Assembly: GCA_016223045.1 (NCBI GenBank)
Contig: JACRPT010000145.1
Location: 12,040-76,039, forward strand
DNA length: 64,000 bases
Direction of reading: 5' to 3'
Source: Candidatus Eiseniibacteriota bacterium
GTDB lineage: Bacteria > Eisenbacteria > RBG-16-71-46
Positions 60,691 through 62,119 of this stretch are shown in pieces. The translations under genes and the position numbers were made by a program. The notes under the pieces were generated by a model. That model had not been told where the DNA came from. It made no database searches and saw nothing but the letters and a program-made list of their open reading frames with translations. Every line of letters begins with the position of its first letter. Position 1 is the first letter of the stretch.

Positions 60691-62119
60691 ATGGAGAAGG
60701 ACAGACCTGCCGTCCTCGTCGTGGACCGCGAGAGCGACGCCACCGGGGCGCTCGTCGGTTTCCTGCGCGCGAACGACCTCGAGGTCGTCTGGGTGCGGGA
60801 CGGCGAGGGCGCCTGCAACGCGCTCGACGGGGCCCGCGTGGACTGCCTGGTCACGGAGCTGCGCGTTCAGCGCATCGACGGCCAACGCGCTCGACCGGGC
60901 CCGCGTGGACTGCCTGGTCATGGAGCTGCGCGTTCAGCGCATCGACGGCATGAGCCTGCTGCGGCGCGCCCGCGAGAAGAACCCCGGAGTCTGCGCGGTC
61001 GTGATCGCCGGGACGGCCGATATCGCCCAGGCGGTCGAGGCGATGCGCCAGGGCGCCGCGGACTTCCAGGTCAAGCCGCTCAACCACGAGAAGCTGCTCA
61101 CCGTGCTGCGCCACGGCCTCGAGCACCAGGCGCTGGCAGCGCGCGTCGTCGAGATGGAGTCGCAGCTCGACGAGCGCTTCGGCTTCGAGCGGCTCACCGG
61201 ACGCTCGCGCGCCATCGTGCGCGTCATGGAACAGGTGCGGCACATCGCCGCGACGCGCGCCACCGTGCTCATCGAGGGCGAGACGGGCACGGGCAAGGGG
61301 CTGGTGGCGCAGGCCATCCACCAGAACAGTCCGCGCAAGGGCGAACGCTTCGTGTGGGTGAACTGCGGCGCGCTGGCCGAGGGCGTCATCGAAGGCGAGC
61401 TGTTCGGCCACGAGCGCGGGGAGCTCGCCGGCTCGAGCGGCTCCGGGCGCGGCCGCTTCGAGCTCGCCGATGGCGGGACGCTGTTCCTCGACGAGATCGG
61501 AGAGCTGCCGCCCGCGATCCAGGTCAAGCTGCTGCGCGCGATGCAGGACCGCTCGTTCGAGCGCGTGGGCGGCACCGAGACCATAAGGACCGACGTGCGG
61601 CTCGTCGCCGCCACCAGCCGGGACCTCGCCGCCGAGGTCGGGGCGGGGCGCTTCCGCGAGGACCTGTTCTGCCGGCTGGGTGTGGTGCGCATCCAGATGC
61701 CGCCGCTGCGCGAGCGCCCCGAGGACATCCCGCTGCTGGTCGAGCGCTTCGTCCGCGAGTTCAACCGCGAGCACGGGCGCCGGGTCGCCGGTGTCACGCG
61801 CGGCGTGCTCGACCGGCTCATGCGCCATCCGTGGCCGGGCAACGTGCGCGAGCTCAGGAACACCGTCGAGGGGATGGCGGTGTTCGCCCGGGGGCGCCGC
61901 GCGCTCGACCTCTCGGACCTGCCGGACCGGCTGCGCGAGGTCGAGAGCGCGGGGGAGAAGCTCGAGCTGCGCGTGGGCATGACGGTGGATGAGGCGGAGC
62001 GCCGGCTCATCGCCGCCACCCTGCGCCACGCCGGCAACGACAAGCCCCGCGCGGCCGCCATGCTGGGCATCGGGCTCAGGACGCTGTACCGGAAGCTCCG
62101 CCGGTATTCTCTGGACTGA
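60691..62119 (+). pseudogene. Sigma54-dependent (NtrC-family) response regulator interrupted by a 67-bp tandem duplication that causes a +1 frameshift.
   Basis: The first 64 codons of the receiver domain, from the ATG at 60691, are in one frame (MEKDRPAVLVVDRE...DCLVTELRVQRIDG). The rest (MSLLRRAREKNPGVCAVVIAGT... , AAA+ GETGTGKG, GAFTGA-equivalent GHERGELAG, Walker B LFLDEIGEL, C-terminal HTH AAMLGIGLRTLYRKLRRY) is in a second frame, the 60905..62119 ORF. Removing one repeat copy gives a single intact ORF. Confidence 0.7.
60817..60950 (+). repeat. Direct tandem repeat, 2 x 67 bp, 64/67 identical.
   Basis: Copy 1 is 60817-60883 and copy 2 is 60884-60950, both AACGCGCTCGAC(G/C)GGGCCCGCGTGGACTGCCTGGTCA(C/T)GGAGCTGCGCGTTCAGCGCATCGACGGC(C/A). 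Both copies encode the same receiver-domain peptide, each in its own frame. Confidence 0.85.

Follow-up and report, generated by a model that had tools for sequence, protein, structure and literature searches.

The stretch of DNA analysed here (the window) comprises 64,000 nt of contig JACRPT010000145.1 (positions 12,040 to 76,039, forward strand) from assembly GCA_016223045.1 of a Candidatus Eiseniibacteriota bacterium. It contains, on the plus strand, a gene for an NtrC-family regulator (60691–62119). As deposited, this gene measures 1429 nt, which is not a multiple of three, and it is broken by a head-to-tail tandem duplication of 67 nt. Tandem Repeats Finder (TRF) reported an array at 60816–60949 with a period of 67, 2.0 copies, 97% matches, no indels and a score of 254. 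The runner-up score across the whole window was 103, and our own scan of the window (period 20–600, at least 90% identity) revealed no further tandem duplication. In the best phase, copy 1 runs from 60816–60882 and copy 2 from 60883–60949 (both on the plus strand), with two mismatches (60829 G vs 60896 C, and 60854 C vs 60921 T). These positions leave exact runs of 24 and 28 nt common to both copies, the run of 28 nt being the longest. The initial annotation had recognised the two adjacent copies, but its placement (60817–60883 and 60884–60950, with 3 mismatches) was one base out of phase. The junction of the copies (60882/60883; feature 60878–60887, plus strand), which is the putative scaffold join discussed below, reads ...CATCGACGGC/CAACGCGCTC... 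across 60870–60895. No microhomology was found at the borders of the copies, and a search of the locus for hairpins or quasi-palindromes able to drive duplication gave nothing relevant.

Because 67 equals 3 × 22 + 1, codons 1–64 (60691–60882) and the open reading frame (ORF) of 404 aa that makes up the rest of the gene (60905–62119) are in different frames. Reading from the ATG at 60691 gives 64 correct codons and is then out of frame until a stop at 61992. The G + C content at third codon positions (GC3) was 0.87–0.97 in frame 1 up to the repeat and 0.93–1.00 in frame 2 after it, so both parts of the gene look coding. Copy 1 lies in the frame of the N-terminal 64 codons and contains GGG at 60829–60831 (Gly47) and ACG at 60853–60855 (Thr55). 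Copy 2 lies in the frame of the remaining gene and contains CGG (Arg47) and ATG at 60920–60922 (Met55). The frameshift after 64 receiver codons, the two peptides quoted for the copies and the presence of an in-frame GTG (60905) and ATG (60920) inside copy 2 had all been described correctly in the initial annotation. Its prediction that deleting either copy gives an intact NtrC-family regulator was likewise borne out, the product being 453 aa (1362 nt) and not approximately 454 aa, with Response_reg, Sigma54_activat, AAA_lid_14 and HTH_8 domains. Translated with one copy removed, the protein was collinear with approximately 40 intact NtrC-family orthologues, with no other indels and a best identity of 90%.

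In the public record, the 404-aa ORF (plus strand, starting at the GTG) is the NCBI product MBI5711420.1 and comprises a truncated receiver, the AAA+ domain and the helix-turn-helix (HTH). NCBI nr lists it among ordinary entries, named 'sigma-54-dependent Fis family transcriptional regulator' and without any partial or pseudo flag. The redoxin ahead of it has the accession MBI5711419.1.

The regulator family is large and well conserved; it is almost confined to Candidatus Eisenbacteria metagenome-assembled genomes (MAGs) and to soil, sediment and groundwater metagenomes, and its members measure 449–453 aa. Approximately 40 orthologous loci were checked, and all were single intact ORFs except one (L108), indicating that the gene is normally under purifying selection. 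None of these loci showed the duplication. At the exceptional locus (L108, 3001–4354; ERZ1370068 contig-1965) the orthologue is split over four reading frames; these breaks look like indel noise of a long-read assembly, not biology. The tandem repeats in 1.3 Mb of compared loci were limited to arrays of microsatellite type and a small number of short repeats in two copies, which is uninformative as a base rate.

The two closest relatives of the window locus are a contig from Hainich groundwater (H43; L001) and a second locus, L165. Both share with the window the gene order thioredoxin-like, RNase_T, AhpC/redoxin, regulator and 294-aa protein, and each contains a single copy of the 67-nt unit. 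Residue 47 is Arg in both (CGG in L165, AGG in L001) and residue 55 is Thr (ACG in both). Judged from these two loci, the ancestral unit would have been R47/T55; with the relatives at Arg47/Thr55, copy 1 (Gly47) and copy 2 (Met55) each hold one derived, nonsynonymous change. Met55 occurred in 0 of 115 homologues, residue 55 being Thr in 91, Ala in 23 and Ser in 2. The only derived change of copy 2, C>T at 60921 (ACG>ATG, T55M), introduces an ATG into the frame of the downstream ORF. Substitutions that create an in-frame ATG account for 5 of the 201 possible single changes in the unit (2.5%).

Comparison of the regulator with L001 over 1362 nt revealed no other indel. The synonymous divergence (dS) to this nearest relative was 0.20, and the pairwise ratio of nonsynonymous to synonymous divergence (dN/dS) was 0.27, compared to 0.12–0.28 for seven neighbouring genes. 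On the window lineage, the nonsynonymous/synonymous counts outside the GAFTGA loop were 16/24 vs 34/59 in the neighbours, and 6 of the 22 derived amino-acid changes in the regulator fell in this single loop. A general relaxation of selection on the regulator was considered and rejected, since the pairwise dN/dS is normal and the excess on the lineage is mostly that of the GAFTGA loop; this is not decisive. On these alignments the regulator gene appears otherwise healthy, without decay outside one loop. The window also has 11 further genes in synteny with L001, and none of them is broken.

Independent support for the junction was sought in other assemblies. Among the Logan contigs, which are assembled run by run from raw reads, L163 (SRR12113394, 2810 nt) was identical (100%) to window positions 58068–60877, confirming the G at 60829 (the copy-1 variant), and ended 5 nt before the junction. 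A second Logan contig (L164; SRR12113397) covers 59267–60318. Logan contigs of this strain measure 1–3 kb, from which the chance of a contig end falling within approximately 10 nt of a given site was estimated at approximately 0.5%. Logan assembles at k = 31. The longest exact repeat (28 nt) is shorter than this, so a real duplication alone should not break the Logan graph. The exact 28-mer across the junction had no matches in JGI metagenome contigs. Protein-guided scans of GTDB representatives and metagenomes yielded no locus of the same strain and nothing closer than 90% amino-acid identity, and searches of protein databases yielded no other 100% fragment of the regulator. To the right of the junction, no Logan contig was found via exact products of the 404-aa ORF or of the downstream gene (292 and 291 aa), in a collection without partial products at contig ends.

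Taking these results together, we think it probable, with considerable room for doubt, that the organism lacks the 67-nt duplication, which would have arisen as a local error of assembly where a scaffold was joined. Inside the regulator gene, two contigs would have met whose ends covered the same 67 bases and differed at two positions, through strain variants or low-coverage tips. The two differences would have kept the de Bruijn graph from merging the ends. The scaffolder would then have abutted the contigs with the whole overlap unrecognised, so that the overlap was written twice without any N; how it handles a mis-estimated negative gap is a step that we infer. The real gene would be a single intact ORF of 453 aa, encoding an NtrC-like orphan regulator whose receiver is independent of phosphorylation (Glu for Asp) and whose GAFTGA loop is degenerate, and it would probably be co-transcribed with the redoxin gene.

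The initial annotation had counted the mismatches between the copies as evidence against an assembly artefact. This argument does not stand, because mismatches are exactly what keeps overlapping contig ends unmerged in the graph, and because L163 stops just short of the junction. The duplication is confined to one point and the gene is intact once one copy is removed. The independent assembly is interrupted here and contains no counterpart of the junction. Borders without microhomology are nothing unusual at a join but less common after slippage. The record probably stems from project PRJNA640378, judging by the MBI accession series, by SRR12113394/97 and by a G + C content of 72–73%. The bin list of this project contains the 72% G + C bin Eisenbacteria_72_14 and the co-assembly bin Eisenbacteria_72_17, and its pipeline combined MEGAHIT with the IDBA-UD scaffolder. 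For scaffold joins by IDBA-UD, duplicated overlaps and local errors have been documented (Chen et al. 2020, Genome Res, PMC7111523). As in those joins, a short stretch is doubled here at one point of an uncurated metagenome scaffold, breaking a gene that is intact in relatives.

Several observations weigh against a scaffolding error. Neither at the junction nor elsewhere in the 64 kb of the window is there any N, whereas the case described by Chen et al. has N plus duplicated sequence; here, moreover, two positions distinguish the copies. In two assemblers the left flank continues into the copy-1 variant alone, and the right flank is attached to the copy-2 variant alone. Such pairing is the simple expectation of a real duplication; for an artefact, both haplotype arms would have to break in repulsion. 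The small-k rounds of MEGAHIT should often bridge the shared tail of 28 nt. L163 ends at 60877 and not at 60882; the contig thus runs into a dead end, not a branch, and is silent on what follows. The in-frame ATG created by T55M is a coincidence that remains unexplained by an artefact. On the window lineage, the regulator shows a modest excess of derived amino-acid changes (22 vs 13, compared to 34 vs 47 in the neighbours; Fisher p = 0.045). The link of the record to PRJNA640378 is inferred and unconfirmed, and the SRR numbers could not be traced in the supplement of that project. Finally, a join without N presupposes blind trimming by the IDBA-UD scaffolder at gaps estimated as zero or negative.

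The same observations bear on a real 67-bp tandem duplication, which would have frameshifted the regulator and left a null allele or young pseudogene, with one later point mutation in each copy. The duplication is, after all, present in the deposited sequence, and a de Bruijn assembler writes only junctions that exist in the reads, each flank carrying its own variant of the copy. One derived nonsynonymous state per copy, with Met55 absent in homologues, is as expected without selection. The derived amino-acid excess also speaks for a real allele, and with the GAFTGA loop lost the function may already have been eroding. We nevertheless regard a real null allele as possible but doubtful. It would require two fixed substitutions in 134 nt (approximately 1.5% neutral divergence, or approximately 15% of the distance to L001) and would therefore have to be old. 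An old duplication would have persisted without reverting, while the remaining 1295 nt stayed free of indels and stops and the 16/24 on the lineage outside the loop matches the 34/59 of the neighbours; this favours the artefact. As a rule, tandem duplications are unstable, and pseudogenes in bacteria do not last long. The stop of L163 short of the junction, the absence of the junction 28-mer elsewhere, the lack of microhomology at the borders and the intact state of approximately 40 orthologous loci also count against a real allele.

What a truncated product could do depends on the protein. The AAA+ sigma54-interaction domain (PF00158, E 1.7e-62, residues 147–313) has GETGTGK and LFLDEIGE, and a Fis-type HTH is present at residues 410–450 (PF02954, E 7.9e-14). 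The best solved full-length homologue is Aquifex NtrC1 (4l4u, E 3e-87, residues 8–452; also 1ny5). In the alignment to NtrC1 (4l4u, 1ny5), the receiver phospho-acceptor position is held by Glu56 (GAG at 60856–60858, plus strand, repeated at 60923–60925 in copy 2). It stands opposite the Asp of the 'LLD' motif, which we take to be the phospho-acceptor of Aquifex NtrC1, and 'DRE' replaces the acidic pocket. Across the family the acceptor position is Glu in 111 of 116 members and Asp in none, and 'DRE' takes the place of the acidic pocket in 92. Neither in the window nor in L001/L165 does a histidine kinase gene lie next to the regulator; the neighbours are those listed above, the 294-aa protein having no Pfam match. 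By these residues, the receiver of the window regulator would be no phospho-switch.

The AAA+ L1 loop (61418–61447, plus strand) encodes GELAGSSGSG where orthologues have GAFTGASGLR, and at the sigma54-contact loop GELAGS stands opposite the GAFTGA of NtrC1 and of the nearest orthologues. The change consists of six single-nucleotide nonsynonymous substitutions in nine codons; a compensated frameshift at the loop was rejected, the six being separate point substitutions. With neither GAFTGA nor the acceptor Asp, the window protein, by architecture an NtrC-family regulator, departs from two defining features of a working sigma54 activator and phospho-receiver. Canonical GAFTGA was present in 49 of the 116 family members, and the others have dozens of different degenerate versions. 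The pattern suggests that the Eisenbacteria family consists of phosphorylation-independent regulators that repeatedly lose their coupling to sigma54.

It is against this background that a selected restart has to be judged. Here the duplication would be real and the C>T change at 60921 would supply an ATG start, so that the first 54 receiver residues are lost and an altered or constitutive NtrC-like regulator is made. That the sole derived change of copy 2 makes an in-frame ATG (5/201) speaks for this, as do the intact downstream ORF with its GC3 of 0.93–1.00 and the preservation of Walker A (GETGTGK), Walker B (DE in LFLDEIGE) and the HTH. The closest solved homologue, Aquifex NtrC1, is activated by removal of its receiver. 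However, no Shine-Dalgarno sequence precedes the GTG at 60905, the ATG at 60920 or the ATG at 60950, though several neighbouring genes have GGAGG, and no internal promoter was found in the regulator gene, the only promoter-like site lying upstream of the redoxin gene. Ribosomes that start at the native ATG cross the site in another frame for approximately 1.1 kb. The degenerate GAFTGA loop makes a canonical sigma54 output unlikely, the receiver would be no phospho-switch, and every point against a real duplication applies here too. We therefore consider a selected restart very unlikely. The proposal of the initial annotation that a receiver-less product could be a deregulated sigma54 activator is undercut by the same points: GELAGS stands for GAFTGA and Glu for the acceptor Asp, the internal starts have neither a Shine-Dalgarno sequence nor a promoter, and ribosomes starting at 60691 stay in the wrong frame to 61992. 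Even if the duplication were real, a deregulated sigma54 activator would, on these motifs, be unlikely.

A reversible duplication, in which gain or loss of one 67-bp copy switches the regulator OFF or ON in the population (phase variation), is a structural possibility. Slippage or recombination between the exact runs of 24 and 28 nt could delete a copy, and either one-copy product is a full-length protein. Yet no one-copy allele of this strain was found in the protein collections, GTDB representatives and metagenomes searched, the orthologous loci are without the duplication, and the repeat is the only one of its kind in the window. The two fixed mismatches suggest a long-lived single state, not frequent switching, and the end of the Logan contig is not where a branch between one-copy and two-copy forms would fall. 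We find such a switch scarcely credible. A genuine duplication whose frameshift is rescued or exploited, whether through the T55M start and a receiver-truncated, GAFTGA-less protein or through ON/OFF flipping in the population, is in our opinion very improbable, as are restart and reversible switch taken together.

Upstream, a near-consensus sigma70-like promoter is predicted before the AhpC/redoxin gene (60124–60151, plus strand; TTGACA-16-GATAAT, with 11 of 12 positions matched and 0.0 such sites expected in shuffled sequence). The AhpC gene stops at 60652, and the regulator starts 38 nt further on, making co-transcription probable; the predicted promoter probably drives a joint AhpC-regulator transcript. 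The sigma54 (-24/-12) promoter motif TGGCAC-N5-TTGCW (at most 2 mismatches) was not enriched in the window, with 15 matches vs 18.5 expected by chance, none of them near the regulator. The intergenic region after the regulator (62120–62198) contains a GC-rich hairpin (ccggggggctaagaccccgg) without a T-run, and a GGAGG ribosome-binding site for a conserved protein of 291/292 aa of unknown function. This protein has a proline-rich N-terminus and one predicted membrane helix.

A second broken gene seemed to be present at 52254–54187 of the window. This candidate was rejected, as the apparent split is an 893-nt deletion in the relative L001. At L001 2684–2704, the contig is without the 893 nt of window 52487–53379, and the alignment blocks overlap by 21 nt. 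In L001 a membrane protein is thereby joined to the C-terminal 75 residues of an ABC-transporter ATPase, and the form in the window is intact. The absence of the 893 nt is a deletion or mis-assembly of the relative.

The main value of these results is as a flag on data quality: the truncated 404-aa MBI5711420.1 passes as a normal sigma54-dependent regulator in public databases, and the gene behind it almost certainly encodes a protein of 453 aa. Were the duplication real, it would amount to an ordinary loss-of-function allele, affecting the orphan regulator of a bacterium known only from uncultured material. Of greater interest are traits of the conserved family that are independent of the duplication, namely the Glu at the phospho-site and the loss of the sigma54-contact motif in over half of the members.

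The disruption itself fits a known class of scaffold-join error or an ordinary frameshift by tandem duplication, neither of which is new. As in frameshift pseudogenes that arise by short tandem duplication and in phase variation based on duplication, the repeat lies in a coding region, its length is not a multiple of three and loss of one copy restores the frame. It differs from phase variation of that kind in that one state was seen, the copies are imperfect and the borders are without microhomology. Rhodobacter capsulatus NtrC and Escherichia coli TyrR are NtrC-family proteins without GAFTGA that do not act through sigma54. In these two proteins, as here, the AAA+ core is conserved and the sigma54-contact loop is degenerate. 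NtrC1 of Aquifex aeolicus has the same receiver-AAA+-HTH order, Walker motifs and Fis-type HTH as the window protein, but combines a phospho-acceptor Asp with GAFTGA where the window protein has Glu56 and GELAGS.

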